A stretch of DNA of 64,000 nucleotides from a virus: IMG/VR virus record IMGVR_UViG_3300020724_000005; one strand, given 5' to 3'. A model generated the notes under the pieces. That model was given only the letters and a program-made list of their open reading frames with translations, searched no databases and was not told where the DNA came from. The position numbers were made by a program, and so were the translations under genes. Numbering within the stretch: position 1 is the first letter of the stretch; the number at the start of each line of letters is the position of its first letter. Below, one piece after another: positions 1,410-26,045 of the stretch.

Positions 1410-1652
1410 TTATATTGTCACTACTTGTCCTATTGGTACTTGGGGTATGATAGCTGCTACTTGCTGTGTGCGCGTTATTCTTGCTTGCTCAGATTGCCCT
1501 CTGATGGAGAGACTCAAATTGATATAATCTATTGAATCTGGAGCAAAGATAGCAACTACTATTTCTTGTTTTGTACCGTCATCAAATGTATACTCTGCCG
1601 TAACATTTAAAGTTTCTCCTGCCTGTTCTGTCGATAAAATTTTGTAAGTCAT
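1410..1652 (-). CDS. Hypothetical small protein (fibre-associated by position)
   Basis: 80-aa ATG ORF packed 1 nt from the next gene, co-directional with the fibre genes. Confidence 0.6.
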   Translation of the reverse strand: MTYKILSTEQAGETLNVTAEYTFDDGTKQEIVVAIFAPDSIDYINLSLSIRGQSEQARITRTQQVAAIIPQVPIGQVVTI

Positions 1653-1666
1653 AAATTTATTTATTT

Positions 1667-4600
1667 TTAAGGTAATGTTCTTATTGCTACGAATTGTACT
1701 GTAACTCTGCTTAAAGTTGTTGCTGAGTTAACAACAAATTCCATTATGTCGTTTGCGTTTATGTTTGTTGAAGTCCATCCTGAAACGCTCGCTGATGCAA
1801 ATTGTTGGGAAGATAGAGACGCTGAGTTGCCAGTTCCTACCAATGAGGTTGAGTTTCTTTTTAAGTCTATCTGTATACAGCTTCCTGCACTTCCAGTATT
1901 TGCCATTACCACCCAGCTTTTGATGGATCCTGACCATGGAATAGATACATATCCTTTAGTACCTGTTGATATAGTTCCACCCTGTCCGTCTAATGTTATA
2001 CCAAAAGATGAAGTTGCAGTAGAAGCTCCACCACCTCCACCGCCAGCAGAACTTAAGGCGTACGAAGCTGTTAAAGCGTAGCTTGAGCTGACCGCGTTTA
2101 GGACATATGATGCAGTTTGGGCTGTTGTAACATAGGACGCTGTAGACGCATAAGAAGCTGTTCCAAATAGAGATCCTGTTATTGAAGATGCACTTACAAA
2201 TGATGCAGTCAGACTATTAACTGATACTCCGTCATTCGTAACTAAACTTCCGCTGAGTGTATAGCTTCCGCTTAGTATCTTGGTGTTGTACCAAACGTTA
2301 GAGTCATACATCAGTAGATCTCCGTATGTAGGACTTGTTAACAATACGTCGCTTAAAGCAGCCAAAGACGTGGTACTTACGCCGGTGCTGCCTCCTATTC
2401 CTCCTACGTTTCTAAATAGACCTCCTTGCTGTATTATCGCTCTTGTGCTTGATAGATCTGTACACCCTTTTTGTACGATTATGTACGCTACAAATATCGC
2501 GTTAAGAGCTGTATTTGGAGCTTCAGTAAACGCTTCTGTGTTTATTGCTGCCTGTGCTGCTGCTGACGTAGAATATTGCGCATTTCCATAATATACCACA
2601 AAAGCATTTGTAGGAGAATTTGGAAACCAGAATACTCTTTGGATAGTCCAGTTAGAGTTATTTACATTATTGCCTGTTACCGTAGTTAAATTTCCTGTTG
2701 TAATATTTACGTATTGACTTGGATCTATGACTGTGTATCCAGCATTTGCAACACCAGTGTCTATGACTGGAGTAGAACCTGATATGTAGTACCTGAATAT
2801 CTTTGAAGTTGTTATAGCTCCTTCTACTGTGGTAGACGGGTGGTTTGGGTTTATTGTATAATTAGCTCCCTCTCTCCACGCGTTTCCTCCTGTTTTGATG
2901 ATACTTAACGTAGATCCGCTTGGCTGTAAAACGTGCCCAGATAATTTAAGAGGTCCAAATGCTCTAAGAAAGTCATCAGATTTTTGGAATCCACCGTATG
3001 ATATCTGAGGTGAGTTAAATACTCCAGAAGATACACTGCCGCTGAGATGTAGAACAACTCCTAAAGGTATAGAATTGTCCCACTGGTTTATGTCAGTAGA
3101 TCCCCAAGGAGTGACTTGTTGTATTACAGTGCTTCCGCTATTTATGCCTACGTATGTTATCTTTGCAGAACCTGAATTGATTATGGGCTGAGAAGTATAA
3201 TTAGGCCATGATATGTACTGGACTGTTGGATACGGCGCACTTGCTGTAGAAGCATTCAGGGTGACTATTATTCCGGTTCCAGCAGATATGTTAAACGTTG
3301 TAGATCCTGTAGTTGATGATAGTATGCCTCCGCTTAGTATGCCGGTATATAATACGCTTTCTAACCAACGTAAACGAGTTGAGTTTGAATATCCTGATCC
3401 ATTCTGTGAAAAGTATAGATCTTGCGTTGAACCAGAAACGTAAATGTACGATGCTGATATCGAGTTGTCTATACTCTTTACTACTGGATTAAACTTAATT
3501 ATGCCGCTCGTCTCCATGTCTCCGTATACCCCGATCGTTGGAGTTGCTGGAGTTGTGGTTGAACCTGAGATTATGATAGATCCTGAGAGAGTCGTGTTAC
3601 CATACAGGTTGTTATTTCCTATTTGAGTAGTAGATCCAGAGATATTCAAAGATCCTGTTAACGTAGTACTGCCGATAAGCGTATTAGATCCGGATGTATT
3701 TATGCTTCCGGTGATTGTTTGATTGCCGATAAAAACGTTTGAACCTGTCGTAGCAAGACTGGCGGATTTTGACACAAACACTGGGTCTACTTCTTGGTAA
3801 TACGAAGCAGATGTGCTTGAGTAACTGTAAGAAGAGCTTATAGCATACGAAGAGCTTAAAGCTTGTGTTGCATATGAAGCTGTACCTTGCAATGAACCTG
3901 TGAATCCACCTGTAGATGATACAGACCCAGTTACGCTAAGAGATCCTGATATGATCGCTGATCCAGTGAAGGGGAATGATGCGCCTGTACCTCCATTTAG
4001 AGCATATGATGCAGTAACCGCGTATGATGAACTCAAGATGCTGTTAGATCCGTAAGGACCATACACGTTAGAACTTGTTACATATGACGCAGTAGATGAA
4101 TACGAAGCTGATGTAACTGATCCTGAAAAGTAACTTGCTGACAGCGCATAAGAAGCTGATAACGCATATGAAGCAGTCGTACTTGTGTTAGAATACGATG
4201 AGCTTAAACTGCTTGAAGCGTATGAAGCAGACAGTATAGAGTTTGCTCCATAAGGTCCATATACTTTTGATGAAGTCACAAAAGACGCTGTCTGAGCGGT
4301 TGTGGTGTACGAAGCAGTAACTGCATATGAAGCGCTCAGCACAGACATCGAACTAGTCTGGTTGCTTAACACCGCTGGGCTGCCGTTTACTGACAGTGAT
4401 CCTGTGATGCTTACGCTGCCGGTCATCACTTGAGTGTTAGTCAGAGAGTTACCGAATATGTTGCTTCCAGAGCTGAATATCACCGATGATGTCTCTGTCT
4501 GTACTACTAGAGTCTTTGCTGTGAGAGTTCCTGCTACTGTAAAGTTATCTGCATAGGAGGCCGTTACTGCTACTGTTGCAAAAGAGGCAGATATGGAGTT

Positions 4601-18227: not shown

Positions 18228-18236
18228 TATAAATAT
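18228..18236 (-). promoter_or_regulatory. Promoter-like motif ATATTTATA
   Basis: 19 nt upstream of the ATG at 18208. Confidence 0.5.
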
Positions 18237-18256: not shown

Positions 18257-21200
18257 TTATTCTTTGATGTTTCTTTCATCTAAAAGCCCACCTGTTTCAC
18301 TTTGGTTCTCAAACAGGGACACCTTCTTGCCCGCAAACATCTTTGCCATGCTGTCTTTATTCTGAAGATACACCGCTTTAGTGCTTTCAAAGCTCAATGG
18401 TCCACCTTTATATTCTACCTTATCTTCTCCGCGTTCCATGCTAGATCCCATTCCTTTTCTGCCTATTGGATCTCTACCAAACGCACTTTTGTCAGTTCCG
18501 ATGATCGATTTGTACTTTTCAGGCCTTCCTGGCATCTTCACTGGCTCATTAGGATTTGTTTCGTTGTAGCCGTCTGGAACGTCTAAGGTAGGTTTTCCGC
18601 CGTACAGTCCTGCTATCTGGGAAGGAGTTCCGTATGCTGTGCCTGACTCTAGAGGATCGTTTCCTTCTGTCTCTATCTGATCGTATCTGAATTTGTTCTT
18701 TTGGTCTTCGATGATCATGTCTTGGAGCTCACCAAACGAATCAGGAGAAAGGTGGAATATGTTTTCCCAGATGTACTCTTTAGGAAGTATCGCTCCTTCA
18801 ACAGCTTGAGTTGCCAGATCGATCTTCTCTTTGAACATCGCTATCCTCTCCTGGTCGTATATGATGGACGGATTTGTCAGGCTCAGGGTGAAGTTTGCCA
18901 TGCCTTCGTCTGTGTATCCGTTTGCATATAGATGAACTAGAGCTATCTTCTTGAGCTCTGATACTATGATCCTCTGCAGTCTTTCTACAGTACGAGCAAA
19001 CCTGATGTCTTCTGCCGCGAGGGTAGCTTTACCTGTGAGGTCTTTTTCGTATCCCATGAACGCCTTTGGTATCTTCAACGCTGCGAATAGCTTTTCTCTA
19101 AAGTATATGACGTCTTCTATCGCATTGTACTCCAGGCCTTTCGCCGTATCTATCCTTGTAGACGTATCATTGCCTCTTACAGGAACTATGAAGTCTTCTA
19201 GTAGGTTCTGTTGGTTGTACTTTAGGTTGTATTGTCCTGTGTTAGGATCGATCAATGGAGTCTTCTTCATCTTGTTGATCATCCTCTGAACGTAGTTCTC
19301 TACCTCGTTTGGTGGTATCGCTCCAACGTTCGTGTAGAATATCCTTCTCTCTGGGGCACGAGTGATCCTATGGATCAACATGGCATCTTCTATGAGCGTA
19401 TACTGTTTAAACAGCTTTCTTGCTGGCTCTAGGTATGATCTGCCATAGGGAAGATAGTTGACGTCTCCAATGAGCCTGAAATGTGCCATCTCGTAGTTAT
19501 CAAACCACACTCCTGGGTCTTGGTTGTTGAAAGCCGAAGTGTATCCAGATGTTGCTGCCAATGCTGCGTTAGGATCAAACTTGAATCTCACCTCATTAGG
19601 GTTGTTCGGGTTGTATCCTTCCTGGCGCACTATGTTGTATGCTGAAAATGGAATTACATTATACACGCCAAATTTATCAGAGATCTCCATCTTTAAGTAG
19701 AAGTCCCCGTACTTGCACATGTTTCTTATCCAAGACCATAGATTGAACTCTATGTTGAGCACTGAGTAGAATAGGTTTTCTAAGATCTTCTGTATGTTTT
19801 CGTCTGAAGACCTTATAGTCAGTACTTGACCCTGTTCATTTTTGAGTGTACAATTGTGTGTATATATCTTAGACCCGTCTTTAGCCTCTATAGCAAATAT
19901 GTGATTGTCTCCTGCATTTACTATGTCATAAACATCTTCATATCCGCATTCTTCTATTGATACAACTTTATGATTAGATGATTTTGCAAAATCTTCTAAA
20001 GTTGAATATCCATTACCCAACACTATTCTTCTCAACTTATTGATAGTAATAGAATTACTATTACAAAAATCTGATACTAAAAATCTCTTTCCCTCTTTGT
20101 AAGTATTATTGCAATATGACCTAAATTTAATTATAGTATCAGTGCTATGGTTAGAAAGTATTTTATTTATTAGGGTTTTAGTATTATTACACTTATACAC
20201 AGCAAAGAGATCTCTAATTATTTTTCTCCACTCAAATGTTATAATATTAAGTTCTTTTTGTATATCTCCTAAAATATTTTTGTGGGGATCATTTTTTATT
20301 CTATCTATTATATATGCTAAGTTTATAGATTTTTTTCTAGTAGTTTGTGTATTATATCTACCATTTTTTTCTTTTGAAATTTTATATCCTTTTCCATACA
20401 TTCCATTTTTAGATCCACGGTGTCCATATACGATTTTTCTTTCTTCTGAACTCAAATTTTCCATGTAACTTTTCATGGAATCTGATTTCTTTTTCAAAAA
20501 AGACTGCTTATCTACATTTTCCCAAAAATGTTTTTGTCCTTCCATTAATTTTACGTAGTAATCATTTTTTTTGGGCGGATCTGAATTTATACTAACCCAA
20601 AGGTTTTTATTATATTCAGCATGAATTTTATTATGCTCATTCCATCCTACCCACTTTAGAAAATTAGGATTATTATTTCTTTTATCAAAAGAGTCATGGT
20701 GTACTACTGGTTTTTCTTTTGCTGGAATCTGATTCCTCTGTTCTTTTAAAAATGTAACCTGATTTGCTACTATCCTATGAGTATATTCGAATTTATCCCC
20801 ACTCCATATTTTTTCATATCCAGGCATGCTAGTTCCTTCTGATATTTTAGTAGAAAGAGCTAATATACTAGTACTAATTTTTATGTCACTAGTAGTTATT
20901 TGAGATCCACTGCTATCTATCCAAATATGATTAGATGTAGCTTTTACTTCAGTTCCATCATCGAAGGTTATTTTATATACCCTTTTCTTCCCATTATAGG
21001 CCACTTTTTCAGCTTTTACTGGACGGAATTCATTAGTTTTTTCATCTAAACCATATATCCATATGTCTTTTGCTCCTGAGTCGTGCAATTCTTTTATGGT
21101 CTTCTTAGTTCCATCTAAAAGAGGTATAACTGTATCTGCTCCAAGACATTCATCCGCTATAATATCCAATGCTGAAGCTATGATTGCATCTGTATCCATA

Positions 21201-21457
21201 GAATCATAATCAGCGTAGATCTGTACTCTCGCTGACTGATAGTTCATCGCCAGATTCAGGTTGACACCATACGCAGTAGAGGTGGTATAAACTTTGTGGA
21301 ACCTATCAATAAGAGAATTAGTCTGAATAACACCATTGGATTGGATATTATCTGTATCCATGACCGAAAGCATATTGCCCCCATCATTGCGGATAATAAC
21401 GTCCGTACTAAATAGTCTGCGGAGTGTAGAAAATAAATTCTGTTGTATTTCTGCCAT
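18257..21457 (-). CDS. Portal protein (gp20-like) interrupted by an intein
   Basis: 1066 aa. The N-extein ends ...YADYDSMDTDAIIASALDIIADE (resembles the T4 gp20 ALDIYADE block) and the C-extein starts CTLKNEQ.... The exteins total 634 aa. It is located between terL and the prohead protease. Confidence 0.8.
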   Translation of the reverse strand: MAEIQQNLFSTLRRLFSTDVIIRNDGGNMLSVMDTDNIQSNGVIQTNSLIDRFHKVYTTSTAYGVNLNLAMNYQSARVQIYADYDSMDTDAIIASALDIIADECLGADTVIPLLDGTKKTIKELHDSGAKDIWIYGLDEKTNEFRPVKAEKVAYNGKKRVYKITFDDGTEVKATSNHIWIDSSGSQITTSDIKISTSILALSTKISEGTSMPGYEKIWSGDKFEYTHRIVANQVTFLKEQRNQIPAKEKPVVHHDSFDKRNNNPNFLKWVGWNEHNKIHAEYNKNLWVSINSDPPKKNDYYVKLMEGQKHFWENVDKQSFLKKKSDSMKSYMENLSSEERKIVYGHRGSKNGMYGKGYKISKEKNGRYNTQTTRKKSINLAYIIDRIKNDPHKNILGDIQKELNIITFEWRKIIRDLFAVYKCNNTKTLINKILSNHSTDTIIKFRSYCNNTYKEGKRFLVSDFCNSNSITINKLRRIVLGNGYSTLEDFAKSSNHKVVSIEECGYEDVYDIVNAGDNHIFAIEAKDGSKIYTHNCTLKNEQGQVLTIRSSDENIQKILENLFYSVLNIEFNLWSWIRNMCKYGDFYLKMEISDKFGVYNVIPFSAYNIVRQEGYNPNNPNEVRFKFDPNAALAATSGYTSAFNNQDPGVWFDNYEMAHFRLIGDVNYLPYGRSYLEPARKLFKQYTLIEDAMLIHRITRAPERRIFYTNVGAIPPNEVENYVQRMINKMKKTPLIDPNTGQYNLKYNQQNLLEDFIVPVRGNDTSTRIDTAKGLEYNAIEDVIYFREKLFAALKIPKAFMGYEKDLTGKATLAAEDIRFARTVERLQRIIVSELKKIALVHLYANGYTDEGMANFTLSLTNPSIIYDQERIAMFKEKIDLATQAVEGAILPKEYIWENIFHLSPDSFGELQDMIIEDQKNKFRYDQIETEGNDPLESGTAYGTPSQIAGLYGGKPTLDVPDGYNETNPNEPVKMPGRPEKYKSIIGTDKSAFGRDPIGRKGMGSSMERGEDKVEYKGGPLSFESTKAVYLQNKDSMAKMFAGKKVSLFENQSETGGLLDERNIKE
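19853..21148 (-). mobile_element. Portal intein (432 aa) with an HNH + NUMOD-like endonuclease domain
   Basis: Block A CLGADTVIPLLDG (Cys codon 21146-21148). Block B TSNH. HNH core VVHHDSFDKRNNNPNFLKWVGWNEHNKIH. NUMOD3-like GSKNGMYGKG. Terminal VYDIVNAGDNHIFAIE...IYTHN followed by the +1 Cys (Asn codon 19853-19855). Confidence 0.85.
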
Positions 21458-21467
21458 ATTTTATTTT

Positions 21468-22895
21468 TTATCCCAATAGCCAATTCAGATCCTCTATAGT
21501 ATTTCCATTTACTGTAGTGATCTCCATTTGATATGGATTATTATTTATAAAGTTATTTGTATTGTAAACTGGGGATTCTCCCATCTTCTTCATCCCGTCT
21601 AATGTAGCATATGTTAAACTCTCTGCCGTCCTTCTGAATCTTATAGAAGAGTCTCTCATATACATCGATATCGCAAAAGACATCACAAGGTCATCATTGT
21701 ATCCTTGCATTGCTTGTGGTTTTGAGTTCTTCCATATGAACACTCTCAATTCTTCTAAAAGCCTAAGTGATCTTATCTTTACTTGCTTTGTCTCTATGAA
21801 GTCTCTCATCCTCTCTATAATAAGAGGTCTTGATGCTGACGACATAGTGAATCCAGGAACTAATGAGTCTGTTGCTCCGTATCTTTCAAGCCTCTTCTCA
21901 TTGTCTAAACTAAAATCTGTCCTATGCGAGTAGTGTAGGTTACTGTAACCGCTCTCGATCAAAGTCTGAAGAACGTCCCAACCTATGTTTGCATTCTCCA
22001 CAGCGACCAAGGCATTGTTGTACTCGAAAGCCGCTGCCAGTATTGTCTTTGCAAACTCTCTGGTGTCGCACTGGGCTTGGTATTCTGCTACCTGGGTCAA
22101 TGTATCTACGTCTATGATGTGGAACGCGGAATAGTCAGCTCCGTCTCCTCTTGCTACGTCTGCACATAACAGATAGGTTTTTAGAGGGCTTGGGTACTCC
22201 CATATCCACATTGCCTTATCGAGTCCCCTTCTTTCGATAGGCTCTAAGACCATGTTTTCTTCATACCAACTTAGTATGTCTGGGATGATGACAGTATTAC
22301 CCGATGAACTAAAGTCACAATCACACTCTTGCGCAGCCATTCTAACTCCAAGGTCTTGATCTTGTCTATCTCTCCAAGGTTGACTTCTTTCTGGGTGTAC
22401 TGTCCAAGGAAGTGATACTGGTACAAAGCTGTTTTCTTTTTTCTGCGCTTTTATATATGTTTTGTGGAACCAATTACCTACGCCGTTTGGAGTCGATAAT
22501 GCTATACATTTACCACCGGTTGCCAAGGTTTGCTGAGCAGAACCAAAAAGATCCTCTGCATTATCTATGAAAGCGCAATTATGACTAACTACATCATTTG
22601 TATAATATTCGTTTTTATTCTTTACGTTTACTAAATCATAAACTTCGAATTCTTCTTCTATAATATCAATAGAAATAATAGAAATATTCCCAAATAGTAT
22701 ATCGCCTACTCTCAATAAACACGCTTCTAGAAACTCACCATTTGGAAATTTAAGACAATGCCCCTCTGTACACTTTATAAAAGAATTATTTGATAATTTT
22801 ATATGAAAAATGATATTAGTAATCTTTGATAAAATTCCATCAAAATCACTAAACCCGGTTGGAGTTAAAATTTCATATTTAGTATTTTTTATCAT
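21468..22895 (-). CDS. terL: Terminase large subunit, C-terminal fragment preceded by a 106-aa C-intein
   Basis: Starts MIKNTKYEILTPTGF...TEGH (block B)...VYDLVNV...NDVVSHN|CAFIDNAEDLF. CAFI matches the T4 gp17 DECAFI Walker-B continuation. The 369-aa C-extein carries the nuclease/translocase part. Confidence 0.9.
   Translation of the reverse strand: MIKNTKYEILTPTGFSDFDGILSKITNIIFHIKLSNNSFIKCTEGHCLKFPNGEFLEACLLRVGDILFGNISIISIDIIEEEFEVYDLVNVKNKNEYYTNDVVSHNCAFIDNAEDLFGSAQQTLATGGKCIALSTPNGVGNWFHKTYIKAQKKENSFVPVSLPWTVHPERSQPWRDRQDQDLGVRMAAQECDCDFSSSGNTVIIPDILSWYEENMVLEPIERRGLDKAMWIWEYPSPLKTYLLCADVARGDGADYSAFHIIDVDTLTQVAEYQAQCDTREFAKTILAAAFEYNNALVAVENANIGWDVLQTLIESGYSNLHYSHRTDFSLDNEKRLERYGATDSLVPGFTMSSASRPLIIERMRDFIETKQVKIRSLRLLEELRVFIWKNSKPQAMQGYNDDLVMSFAISMYMRDSSIRFRRTAESLTYATLDGMKKMGESPVYNTNNFINNNPYQMEITTVNGNTIEDLNWLLG
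22578..22895 (-). mobile_element. Split-intein C-fragment (IntC, aa 1-106 of the 21468..22895 ORF)
   Basis: Contains the TxxH block B (TEGH) and blocks F/G (VYDLVNV..., VVSHN), followed by the +1 Cys. Confidence 0.8.
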
Positions 22896-23599
22896 TTTAA
22901 AAATTGTCTCATCGATTTTAATAACTGGGGTTGTTCTTCATAATTAATCATATTCGCATTTTTCTTAAACCAACTATCTGAAATTATTACCATTTTATAA
23001 GAATTATCTTTACACCATGATAATGCGCTTTTAAATTTAATTATATTTTTAGGATCCGATTTTAATTTTGATGGTTTTATTTCATATAAAATTTTTTTGT
23101 CAAAATCAACGAAATCTACTATATAAGATGATACTTTATTTTGATATTCATATTGTATTCTTACTTTTTCGTAGTCTAGATGTTGATTTAATAGAAAAAA
23201 TACAGCTTCCCAATTACTTCTGAATTTTTTTATGTCATCTTTAATTTTAATATAGCTTTTCCAATTTGTCCAACTATTAGTTATGCATGGCGTAAATTTA
23301 CCTTCTTTTATAAGTCTCTTTAATCTTATTGAATTCTGTCTTCGTGCTTCTATTACTCTAGGACTACTCTTAATCTTTTCTTTATGTTCCTGTGTCGATA
23401 CAGTTTTTTTATTTGATTCTACTCTTTTTCTTTTTGTTTCTTCTGAATCTTTATGGTGATTATGTGAAGTCCAACATGGTTGAGTACAGTATTTTTTATT
23501 TTCTTTTTTTGTTAAATATCTCTTTCCACATCCGGAACATTCTTTTTCTATAGGTTCTTTCCAATTCCACGAGTGTTTTTTAATATTCTCTATAAACAT
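22892..23599 (-). CDS. Free-standing putative homing endonuclease (Zn-ribbon + PD-(D/E)xK-like C-terminal domain) lodged between the intein halves
   Basis: 235 aa. N-terminal CSGCGK..x..C..PC, a basic middle region, and a C-terminal IVDFVDFDKKILYEIKP (D...ExK pattern). It has its own promoter-like motif 10 nt upstream, and its stop overlaps the IntC start (ATGA). Confidence 0.6.
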   Translation of the reverse strand: MFIENIKKHSWNWKEPIEKECSGCGKRYLTKKENKKYCTQPCWTSHNHHKDSEETKRKRVESNKKTVSTQEHKEKIKSSPRVIEARRQNSIRLKRLIKEGKFTPCITNSWTNWKSYIKIKDDIKKFRSNWEAVFFLLNQHLDYEKVRIQYEYQNKVSSYIVDFVDFDKKILYEIKPSKLKSDPKNIIKFKSALSWCKDNSYKMVIISDSWFKKNANMINYEEQPQLLKSMRQFLK

Positions 23600-23609
23600 T
23601 TGCTTTTAC

Positions 23610-23618
23610 TATAAATAT
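23610..23618 (-). promoter_or_regulatory. Promoter-like motif ATATTTATA
   Basis: 10 nt upstream of the endonuclease ATG at 23599. It abuts the IntN stop codon. Confidence 0.5.
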
Positions 23619-24217
23619 CAATAATGTCCAGATAATTTATTTTTTAATTCATTTATTGTTGTCTTTTCTATTTCGCCAGTATTTTTATTCTTAATTAATA
23701 TTTCAGTATCTCCAGTTACACATTCATCCATCACAAGAAGAGATACTGCTTCAGAACGAGCTGAGTCGCTTGCTCCTGACACTGCCTTTATCTGAGAACC
23801 GTTTGTGAGTCGTAAACTTAGCCTGTTGTCTTCAGTAGCTCCTATCTTCAACCAAGCTGGAAGGTTATCGTATGCAAATCGTACCTTTGTGACCATATTC
23901 TTGGCCGTCTCTTGCTTTGTTGCTATGACCAGTACGTTCTTATCTTTGTGGAATACCATGAGCCAGAGCGCATAAGCAGACACCAACGTTGATATCCCCA
24001 GCTGTCTTGACTTGTTTATTATTACATTTTGGTCTCCTGAAAAGACCTTTAGCATGGATTCTTGGAATGGGTATAGATCAAAGAGCATCCTGCCTCTTTG
24101 AGGGTGTTGGATCATGTAATACTTCTTCATGAAATATACCGGGTCTGTGGCGCATTTCACAAATTCTTCTCGTATCTTATCTTTGATAGTGGATTGCCTC
24201 GTAATCGGTTCGGGCAT
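23618..24217 (-). CDS. terL: Terminase large subunit, N-terminal ATPase fragment followed by a 34-aa N-intein
   Basis: Walker A SRQLGISTL (T4 gp17 SRQLGKT-like). Walker B LLVMDE, followed directly by CVTGDTEILIKNKNTGEIEKTTINELKNKLSGHY and a stop. Confidence 0.9.
   Translation of the reverse strand: MPEPITRQSTIKDKIREEFVKCATDPVYFMKKYYMIQHPQRGRMLFDLYPFQESMLKVFSGDQNVIINKSRQLGISTLVSAYALWLMVFHKDKNVLVIATKQETAKNMVTKVRFAYDNLPAWLKIGATEDNRLSLRLTNGSQIKAVSGASDSARSEAVSLLVMDECVTGDTEILIKNKNTGEIEKTTINELKNKLSGHY
23621..23722 (-). mobile_element. Split-intein N-fragment (IntN, 34 aa)
   Basis: Block A CVTGDTEIL begins at Cys166, right after the Walker-B DE. The ORF terminates before any block B. Confidence 0.8.
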
Positions 24218-24228
24218 AAAACTTTTGT

Positions 24229-24265
24229 TTATAAATATATCGGATTTGACTGAGTATATTTATAA
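24229..24265. repeat. 11-bp perfect inverted repeat TTATAAATATA / TATATTTATAA with a 15-nt spacer
   Basis: Left arm 24229..24239, right arm 24255..24265, in the terL upstream intergenic region. Confidence 0.7.
24230..24238 (-). promoter_or_regulatory. Promoter-like motif ATATTTATA
   Basis: 12 nt upstream of the terL ATG at 24217. It forms the left arm of an 11-bp inverted repeat. Confidence 0.5.
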
Positions 24266-26036: not shown

Positions 26037-26045
26037 TATAAATAT
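26037..26045 (-). promoter_or_regulatory. Promoter-like motif ATATTTATA
   Basis: 18 nt upstream of the ATG at 26018. Confidence 0.45.

Follow-up and report, generated by a model that had tools for sequence, protein, structure and literature searches.

A fractured large terminase gene carrying a predicted atypical split intein and a free-standing putative homing endonuclease in a phage from IMG/VR

The terminase large subunit gene (terL) of the virus record IMGVR_UViG_3300020724_000005 was analysed within a 64-kb stretch of DNA (64,000 nucleotides, nt), referred to here as the window, and all positions are given in the coordinates of that window. The whole locus lies on the minus strand and consists of three open reading frames (ORFs) (Table 1). 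The upstream ORF encodes the first part of the packaging ATPase (the N-extein) followed by a short N-terminal intein segment (IntN), and the downstream ORF encodes a long C-terminal intein segment (IntC) followed by the remainder of TerL (the C-extein). A third ORF, resembling a nuclease, is located between the two. This layout had been proposed in an initial annotation made from the sequence alone, and the coordinates, the peptide strings and the spliced length of 534 amino acids (aa) given there proved correct. ORF translation returned the 34-aa segment carrying block A only after LLVMDE, the 106-aa segment with TEGH, VYDLVNV and VVSHN that leads into CAFIDNAE, and the 235-aa ORF with a zinc ribbon and a D...ExK nuclease-like C-terminus, which is conserved in homologues.

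Table 1. Features of the fractured terL locus, the promoter-like motif and the neighbouring portal gene (window coordinates; a slash marks the boundary between extein and intein)
Feature	Position	Strand	Description
TerL N-extein + IntN ORF	24217..23618	-	199 aa; end ...SEAVSLLVMDE/CVTGDTEILIKNKNTGEIEKTTINELKNKLSGHY, then stop
TerL N-extein	23723..24217	-	165 aa; ATPase Walker A and Walker B; end ...LLVMDE
IntN	23621..23722	-	34 aa, CVTGDTEILIKNKNTGEIEKTTINELKNKLSGHY; block A only; TGA stop 23618-23620
Nuclease ORF	22892..23599	-	235 aa; free-standing putative homing endonuclease
IntC + TerL C-extein ORF	22895..21468	-	475 aa
IntC	22578..22895	-	106 aa; block B TEGH; blocks F/G VYDLVNV...VVSHN
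TerL C-extein	21468..22577	-	369 aa + stop; from Cys+1, CAFIDNAE...; rest of ATPase and RNaseH-like nuclease domain
ATATTTATA promoter-like motif	24230..24238	-	12 nt upstream of terL N-fragment ATG
ATATTTATA promoter-like motif	23610..23618	-	overlaps N-fragment stop; 10 nt upstream of nuclease ATG
Other ATATTTATA copies	18228-18236, 26037-26045	-	
Other ATATTTATA copies	40750, 54007, 57958	+	
Portal (gp20) gene, T4-type	18257-21457	-	
Portal intein	19853-21148	-	432 aa, contiguous, inside the portal gene

The two exteins were compared with known terminases. The N-extein matches the Pfam families Terminase_6N and GpA_ATPase as well as PHROG 5989 (terminase large subunit, 4.9e-50), and the C-extein matches Terminase_6C and PHROG 2 (terminase large subunit, 1.4e-25). 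Joining them in silico gave a protein of 165 + 369 = 534 aa, which was aligned end to end with the TerL of Flavobacterium phage immuto, the closest cultured relative, in which the protein has 524 aa and no interruption. The alignment is gapless at the junction, which reads LLVMDE-CAFIDNAE in the window and LLLIDE-AAFIDNIE in immuto. The insertion is positioned directly after the Walker-B/catalytic glutamate of the TerL ATPase, and the +1 residue is alanine in the intein-less immuto allele and the nucleophile cysteine in the intein-bearing window allele. The insert is compositionally foreign to the exteins, with a GC content of 22–26% compared to 42–43%.

The intein was identified using the fused sequence of IntN and IntC, numbered continuously. 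A search of the PDB matched the fused sequence to CatC (6DSL_B, "Consensus engineered intein CatC") with an E-value of 1.5e-16, to VidaL at 7.6e-5, colinear over both IntN and IntC, and to gp41-1 at 8.8e-4; IntN alone as the query gave no match in the PDB. An AlphaFold2 model of the fusion, computed from a 21-sequence alignment, had a mean predicted local distance difference test score (pLDDT) of 91.3, with confidence falling only at residues 31–40, which form the junction loop, and at the final few extein residues. Comparison of this model with the PDB using Foldseek gave 63 matches at E ≤ 1e-3. All 50 that were listed are intein or related Hint-domain structures, with VidaL at 5e-8, Cat near the top and template modelling (TM) scores of up to 0.8 among the matches listed. 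Superposition of Cat on the model gave a root-mean-square deviation of 1.9 Å over 100 columns, with 38% identity (Foldseek). The fused IntN and IntC are thus predicted by modelling to adopt the HINT fold, of which IntN forms the first strands and helix in the model.

The catalytic positions of the intein are conserved. Cys1 is located directly after LLVMDE and is invariant across 12 aligned related inteins, while the histidine of the block B motif TEGH (His80 in the fused numbering), Asp121 of block F, His139 and Cys+1 (Cys141) are invariant in 21 sequences, with Asn140 present in at least 90%. The sequence therefore has the features of a class-1 intein, namely a block A Cys1, a block B TxxH, a terminal His-Asn followed by Cys+1, and the HINT fold. 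The break lies in the loop between blocks A and B at a position identical in all 10 split relatives aligned, and the homology, the combination of an IntN shorter than about 40 aa with an IntC longer than 100 aa and the phage large terminase host are those of the AceL/GOS/Cat type. Alignment of the flanking segments to the Hint-domain blocks, on which the initial annotation had made its reading depend, was thereby obtained together with conservation of the catalytic residues. The core anatomy of the locus and its intein homology are far beyond chance, and splicing in this phage is predicted from the conserved residues and from relatives reported to be active.

The spacer separating the stop of the N-fragment from the nuclease ATG is 18 nt long, and continuing the frame of the N-fragment across it gives HY-stop-YL-stop-stop-KQM, with the three stops TGA, TAG and TAA. 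The nuclease ATG shares the frame of the N-fragment, as had been annotated; the accompanying description of a single TGA and six sense codons (IFIVKA) between the two did not hold, IFIVKA belonging to a different frame. IntC is in another frame and, again as annotated, begins in an ATGA overlap formed by the nuclease TGA and the IntC ATG.

Expression signals were examined by comparison with shuffled sequences. The motif ATATTTATA is present in 19 copies in the window compared to 1.5 expected, an excess of about 12-fold that none of the shuffles reached, and 15 of the 19 copies precede, by 3–22 nt, the ATG of a same-strand ORF with 52 aa or more. It is probably a late-type promoter motif of this phage, a variant of the T4 motif TATAAATA. 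The separate copy assigned to the nuclease by the initial annotation was recovered. No copy precedes the IntC ORF, which is presumably translated through ATGA coupling or from a longer transcript. A hairpin before IntC was not significant (z = 1.79), and sigma-70 promoters and terminators in the terL region were not above the level of the shuffles.

In the 235-aa nuclease a helical linker joins an N-terminal Cys4 zinc ribbon (CSGC...CTQPC) to a C-terminal alpha/beta PD-(D/E)xK domain with the putative catalytic residues E131, D162, D165 and E173-x-K175. A 6-sequence alignment shows no variation at E131, D162, E173 and K175, nor does an alignment of 64 homologues at D162, D165, E173 and K175. 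The sequence matches the endonuclease family PHROG 15427 at 2.9e-27, and an exhaustive search gave 894 homologous cluster representatives at E ≤ 1e-3. The TnsA-like endonuclease N-terminal family PF08722 is matched by 52 of the 64 homologues (best 2.4e-10). Sequence and profile searches of the PDB gave nothing meaningful. The AlphaFold2 model of the nuclease had a pLDDT of 92.5, and Foldseek matched it, at weak E-values, to a Cas4-like protein, the catalytic domain of I-Bth0305I and TnsA with probabilities of 0.93–0.99. The probability was 0.94 for I-Bth0305I (3R3P) and 0.99 for TnsA (1T0F), the latter with a weak E-value of 0.048 and a TM score of approximately 0.3.

Membership of two further nuclease families was considered. 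The EDxHD motif is a composite E-D-x-H-D in which a conserved histidine acts as the general base (Taylor 2011, PMC3239194). The 64-sequence alignment contains no invariant or near-invariant histidine, ruling out an EDxHD/Vsr-like nuclease in the sense of Dassa 2009 and Taylor 2011, and the lone histidine in the nuclease domain of the window protein is unconserved in the 6-sequence alignment. A GIY-YIG identity was also ruled out. The middle ORF is most readily described as a zinc-ribbon/TnsA-like PD-(D/E)xK putative homing endonuclease. Literature searches on TnsA-like homing endonucleases gave nothing specific.

The reproducibility of the locus was assessed in the JGI/IMG, Logan and ENA collections. 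The exact 199-, 235- and 475-aa products were found on 27, 32 and 25 contigs, respectively, the longest contig being 157,862 bp. The surroundings of the N-fragment were inspected on 24 contigs, and on 23 of them the neighbouring genes encode mostly the same proteins as on the remaining one. An 84-kb ENA contig is identical to the window base for base across 6.6 kb. Because the exact ORFs recur on 25–32 contigs, sequencing error is excluded, including the frameshift or nonsense error that the initial annotation had recommended excluding.

A scan of IMG/VR with IntC as the query gave 16 loci (L001 to L016). L001 has the same layout as the window, with exteins that are 92% identical at the amino acid level and IntN, nuclease and IntC segments that are 53–65% identical. 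For the exteins, the ratio of nonsynonymous to synonymous substitution rates (dN/dS, NG86) between the window and L001 was 0.03, compared to 0.27 for the intein and 0.20 for the nuclease; all three values are approximate because the synonymous divergence (dS) is saturated. The dS values of the intein and nuclease are similar to those of the exteins. Taken from these sequence comparisons, the values point to purifying selection on both intein and nuclease, and to an old, maintained state.

The relatives differ from one another in the arrangement of the three ORFs. The frame relations between N-fragment, nuclease and IntC vary across the window, L001, L002 and L003; the frame that N-fragment and nuclease share in the window is hence not a conserved feature. 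The nuclease has 344–351 aa in L002–L008 and 129 aa, corresponding to the nuclease domain only, in L012 (around L012:3330-3716). L012 is near-identical to L009, L010 and L011 and yet has the 129-aa ORF, of which L010 contains only a short remnant. This presence and absence between near-identical contigs (L012 versus L010), together with the location inside mobile inteins, is the evidence that relates the nuclease to homing. L013 is split without a nuclease, the TGA of its N-fragment overlapping a TTG start that is preceded by AAAGGAG (L013:4860-4910). A protein search revealed contiguous mini-inteins without an endonuclease in P0001, at the Walker-B site, and in P0013, where the gene call starts MVDE; a small neighbour-joining tree pairs each of them with a split form as its sister, in two subclades. 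In the protein P0316, encoded on a metagenomic contig, the nuclease, IntC and TerL C-part form one ORF of 841 aa. No fully contiguous IntN-nuclease-IntC allele was found among the relatives.

The related inteins sit at a minimum of three TerL sites. In many relatives terL is in three pieces, being cut by two atypical split inteins, both of the family found in the window, as in L003–L008 (e.g. L003:1476-5882), L016 and P0002, P0003, P0006, P0007 and P0010. The second TerL site is QEC/DxDF and a third, in P0001, is LSSP/NG. The middle fragments of these genes are approximately 230–240 aa long and have the order IntC-extein-IntN. In P0027 (172 aa) an IntC-like domain ending ...VSHNC is followed directly by an IntN, CVSGDTFVQIQTKDG..., leaving a one-residue 'extein' between the halves.

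Deposited phage genomes (50,697) were searched with the nuclease and IntC using tblastn. An IntC homologue is present in terL of 79 genomes, of which 39 are from Campylobacter, 14 from Escherichia, 10 from Vibrio, 5 from Salmonella, 4 from Yersinia and the rest from other phages. In Salmonella phage SG1 the N-terminal part of TerL ends ...AMIYIDE/CVAKDT... before a stop, and is followed by a 199-aa "endonuclease" and then by MQFLELDGYEVLT...ESHN/CAFIPNF.... The break in SG1 comes immediately behind the conserved IYIDE motif. SG1, Escherichia coli phage phiS and Shewanella phage Thanatos-2 have the insertion site (IYIDE/C...SHN/CAFI), the intein family (39–40% identity) and the nuclease family in common with the window. 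Unlike the window, phiS (L019, PP449093, 1304-3055) and Thanatos-2 (L018, MT457553, 467-2212) encode the TerL N-part, IntN and nuclease as one ORF of 581–583 aa. Escherichia phage HY03 and the Campylobacter Fletcherviruses are known here from tblastn matches only. In Campylobacter phage F207 (MT863714.1) terL is, unlike in the window, divided into unlinked halves that lie on opposite strands, with the N-fragment and IntN at 107193-107729 (-) and IntC with the TerL C-part at 1488-1784 (+), and in phage CPX (L022) the IntC ORF is located directly after gp13. Such unlinked halves in the Campylobacter Fletcherviruses would amount to a split-intein terL that is fully dispersed in the genomes of cultured phages. 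GenBank labels in the cultured carriers give two terminase ORFs plus an 'endonuclease', and literature searches on split terL in Tequatrovirus gave nothing specific. The rarity that the initial annotation had implied for a complete phage context is not borne out, the same fracture being present in cultured T4-like phages.

Fractured genes were defined by Dassa et al. 2009 (NAR 37:2560; PMC2677866), with a phage terminase among their hosts. That terminase locus, from Lake Gatun, is similar to gp17 of Myoviridae and is broken at an unusual point, giving a C part of 122 aa that is without motif N1 only (PMC2677866). The window likewise contains a gp17-like TerL, an unusual break, a long C part with all motifs but N1, which at 106 aa is shorter than the 122 aa of the published locus, and an endonuclease gene on the same strand between the halves. 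Fractured loci generally have late-promoter elements upstream of the endonuclease, an endonuclease 3′ end that overlaps the downstream gene (15 loci) and a hairpin upstream of the endonuclease (15 of 16) (PMC2677866). A promoter-like element before the endonuclease and a stop/start overlap are also found in the window, while the spacer is 18 nt compared to 27–51 nt and the upstream hairpin is not significant, unlike in most of the published loci. The putative TnsA-like PD-(D/E)xK nuclease of the window contrasts with the endonucleases described in 2009, which were only GIY-YIG and Vsr-like (EDxHD). The window locus is complete, and the contigs that carry it reach 158 kb.

AceL-TerL (25 + 104 aa), GOS-TerL (37 + 115 aa) and the consensus Cat-TerL (30 + 104 aa) are described in a 2025 review as atypical split inteins that splice in trans (PMC11766414). 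The window intein resembles them in its TerL host, in the short IntN (34 aa compared to 25, 37 and 30 aa) and in the long IntC (106 aa compared to 104–115 aa), and has the Cys1/Cys+1 pair in common with AceL and Cat. Its sequence is distinct from all three, and its activity is a prediction from that sequence. The nuclease resembles I-Bth0305I in having a restriction-endonuclease-like catalytic domain, an N-terminal DNA-binding region and a free-standing position between split-intein halves. Unlike I-Bth0305I and the EDxHD enzymes, the nuclease family of the window has neither the conserved histidine nor the EDxHD motif, and shows the canonical PD-(D/E)xK pattern. The identification of a Dassa-type fractured gene with an AceL-TerL-like split intein, made in the initial annotation, is supported by the layout, the CatC match and the fold. 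The high novelty attributed to it is not supported, as the arrangement has already been described and each element of the finding has published precedent. What is newly documented is the sequence itself, the complete locus in a large phage contig, the 18-nt spacer, the lack of a significant hairpin and a nuclease of a third, probably TnsA-like, family.

Together these data are best explained by a terL gene fractured by a split intein and nuclease element after the catalytic glutamate, with trans-splicing restoring the 534-aa TerL, a reading to which we assign a probability of about 0.88. A mobile element that combines a class-1 HINT intein with a nuclease gene would have inserted at ...LLVMDE/C..., and two polypeptides, TerL(1-165)-IntN(34) and IntC(106)-TerL(369), would be made. 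The short IntN would dock on the nearly complete IntC and complete the HINT fold, and trans-splicing through Cys1, the block B histidine, the terminal His-Asn and Cys+1 would then generate the 534-aa TerL with the junction ...LLVMDE-CAFIDNAE.... The predicted junction peptide of this spliced protein of approximately 60 kDa is SLLVMDECAFIDNAEDLFGSAQQTLATGGK. Given the active homologues and the viable cultured carriers, it is very probable that IntN docks on IntC and that trans-splicing regenerates TerL, and splicing would be required for packaging. The nuclease would most likely act as a homing endonuclease that mobilises the element by cleaving an empty or mini-intein allele. Its ORF is preceded by a separate copy of the promoter-like motif, and the downstream IntC ORF would be translationally coupled to it via the ATGA.

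Several observations weigh against this reading. The window nuclease falls below the Pfam thresholds, its best match being Tox-REase-9 with an E-value of 0.005, and its fold matches have E-values of 0.035 or above. The hairpin upstream of the nuclease is not significant against shuffles (z = 0.37). The dS values on which the selection estimates depend lie at about 1.0–1.9 in all parts of the locus. An insertion site identical to that of AceL and GOS cannot be assumed, since relatives occur at no fewer than three TerL sites. Both splicing and nuclease activity in this phage are predicted from sequence and models.

The initial annotation had regarded the frame relations as a snapshot of a contiguous endonuclease-containing intein in the course of splitting; on this reading a nonsense mutation and a frameshift would recently have disrupted the intein. 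The common frame of N-fragment and nuclease ATG would suit such a transition, as would the half-fusions of IntN and nuclease in phiS and Thanatos-2 and of nuclease, IntC and TerL-C in P0316. It is nevertheless improbable, as three stops separate the first two ORFs, IntC is in another frame, and a shared frame that varies in L001, L002 and L003 is expected by chance in one case out of three. The nuclease is provided with a promoter-like motif and a start of its own, and the break between blocks A and B is not at the canonical site of an endonuclease domain (Dassa 2009, PMC2677866). The contiguous alleles that were found, P0001 and P0013, lack an endonuclease and have split forms as their sisters, in two subclades, and the layout is common to a relative at saturated synonymous divergence with signs of purifying selection. 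The relatives form a full natural series, which comprises contiguous mini-inteins, free-standing nucleases, fusions of the nuclease to IntN or to IntC, a remnant of the nuclease, a split form lacking it and unlinked halves. The data fit the model of Dassa et al., in which a free-standing endonuclease invades the gene of a mini-intein and then remains there over long periods, now and then decaying or becoming fused, and do not fit the fresh break-up of a contiguous endonuclease-containing intein.

The intein halves might also hold TerL together as an unspliced, non-covalent complex, like the genes-in-pieces NrdA of phage Aeh1, and split phage enzymes that function without splicing are cited in Dassa 2009 (PMC2677866). 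This is very improbable given that Cys1, the block B histidine, His-Asn and Cys+1 are conserved across inteins that are only 30–64% identical, that the alanine at +1 in the intein-less relative suggests the cysteine is kept for splicing, and that family members are reported to splice in trans (PMC11766414); a 140-aa HINT domain beside the catalytic glutamate would probably also obstruct the ATPase. A selfish insertion that cuts the ATPase at its catalytic centre could be expected to inactivate terL, leaving a defective phage or one packaged in trans. The low dN/dS of the exteins, the conservation of all splicing residues and the plaque-forming cultured phages that share the fracture make a dead gene extremely improbable, and no second terL-like ORF matching intein or TerL pieces was found in the window. 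That the intein is really one ORF, misread through a sequencing or assembly artefact, has a negligible probability: the region is AT-rich with homopolymer runs and the possibility is otherwise a general one, whereas the three exact products recur in three collections, with an independent identical ENA contig, the tripartite layout is present in relatives and cultured phages, and a single ORF would require undoing three stops and a frame change. Equally negligible is a group I intron that encodes the endonuclease, the description given in the literature for terL of phage IBB_35: none of the Rfam families, those of group I and II introns included, was matched anywhere in the window, and the nuclease is flanked by HINT blocks that are coding and share the frame of the exteins, leaving the 18-nt spacer as the only non-coding sequence.

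A search of the window for other inteins or fractured genes gave only the contiguous intein of the portal gene. It has the boundaries CLGADT...YTHN/C and a large HNH-like insert, with a GC content of 29% compared to 43% for its extein. The portal of L001 has an empty site, DIIADE/STLKN, with exteins 96.8% identical to those of the window; the portal of L002 contains the same intein, and the portal ORF of L012 appears to carry several intein-like inserts. L001:466-3096 encodes an 877-aa protein whose C-terminus (...FTPNGDGLNDLYKP...) we take to resemble a Bacteroidetes C-terminal sorting domain of the gliding-motility/type IX secretion system (T9SS) type. As the nearest cultured TerL is that of Flavobacterium phage immuto, this T9SS-like C-terminus suggests a Bacteroidota host.

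Tentatively, the nuclease family may be one of homing endonucleases that belongs with neither GIY-YIG nor EDxHD, is uncharacterised by experiment and has the loop between blocks A and B of TerL mini-inteins as its target. If this were true, the plaque-forming E. coli and Salmonella phages in the series of relatives would make the origin and in vivo role of atypical split inteins directly testable in a tractable system. The dependence of an essential packaging ATPase on trans-splicing of the AceL/GOS/Cat type would make the locus a complete natural example of a known arrangement, with no new mechanism involved. The locus adds a natural 34-aa IntN sequence, with its full genomic context, to a family prized for protein labelling. 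The comparison with relatives indicates an arrangement that is stable and widespread, extending to cultured T4-like coliphages and Salmonella phages, in which the dependence on splicing and the homing of the element would both be testable.

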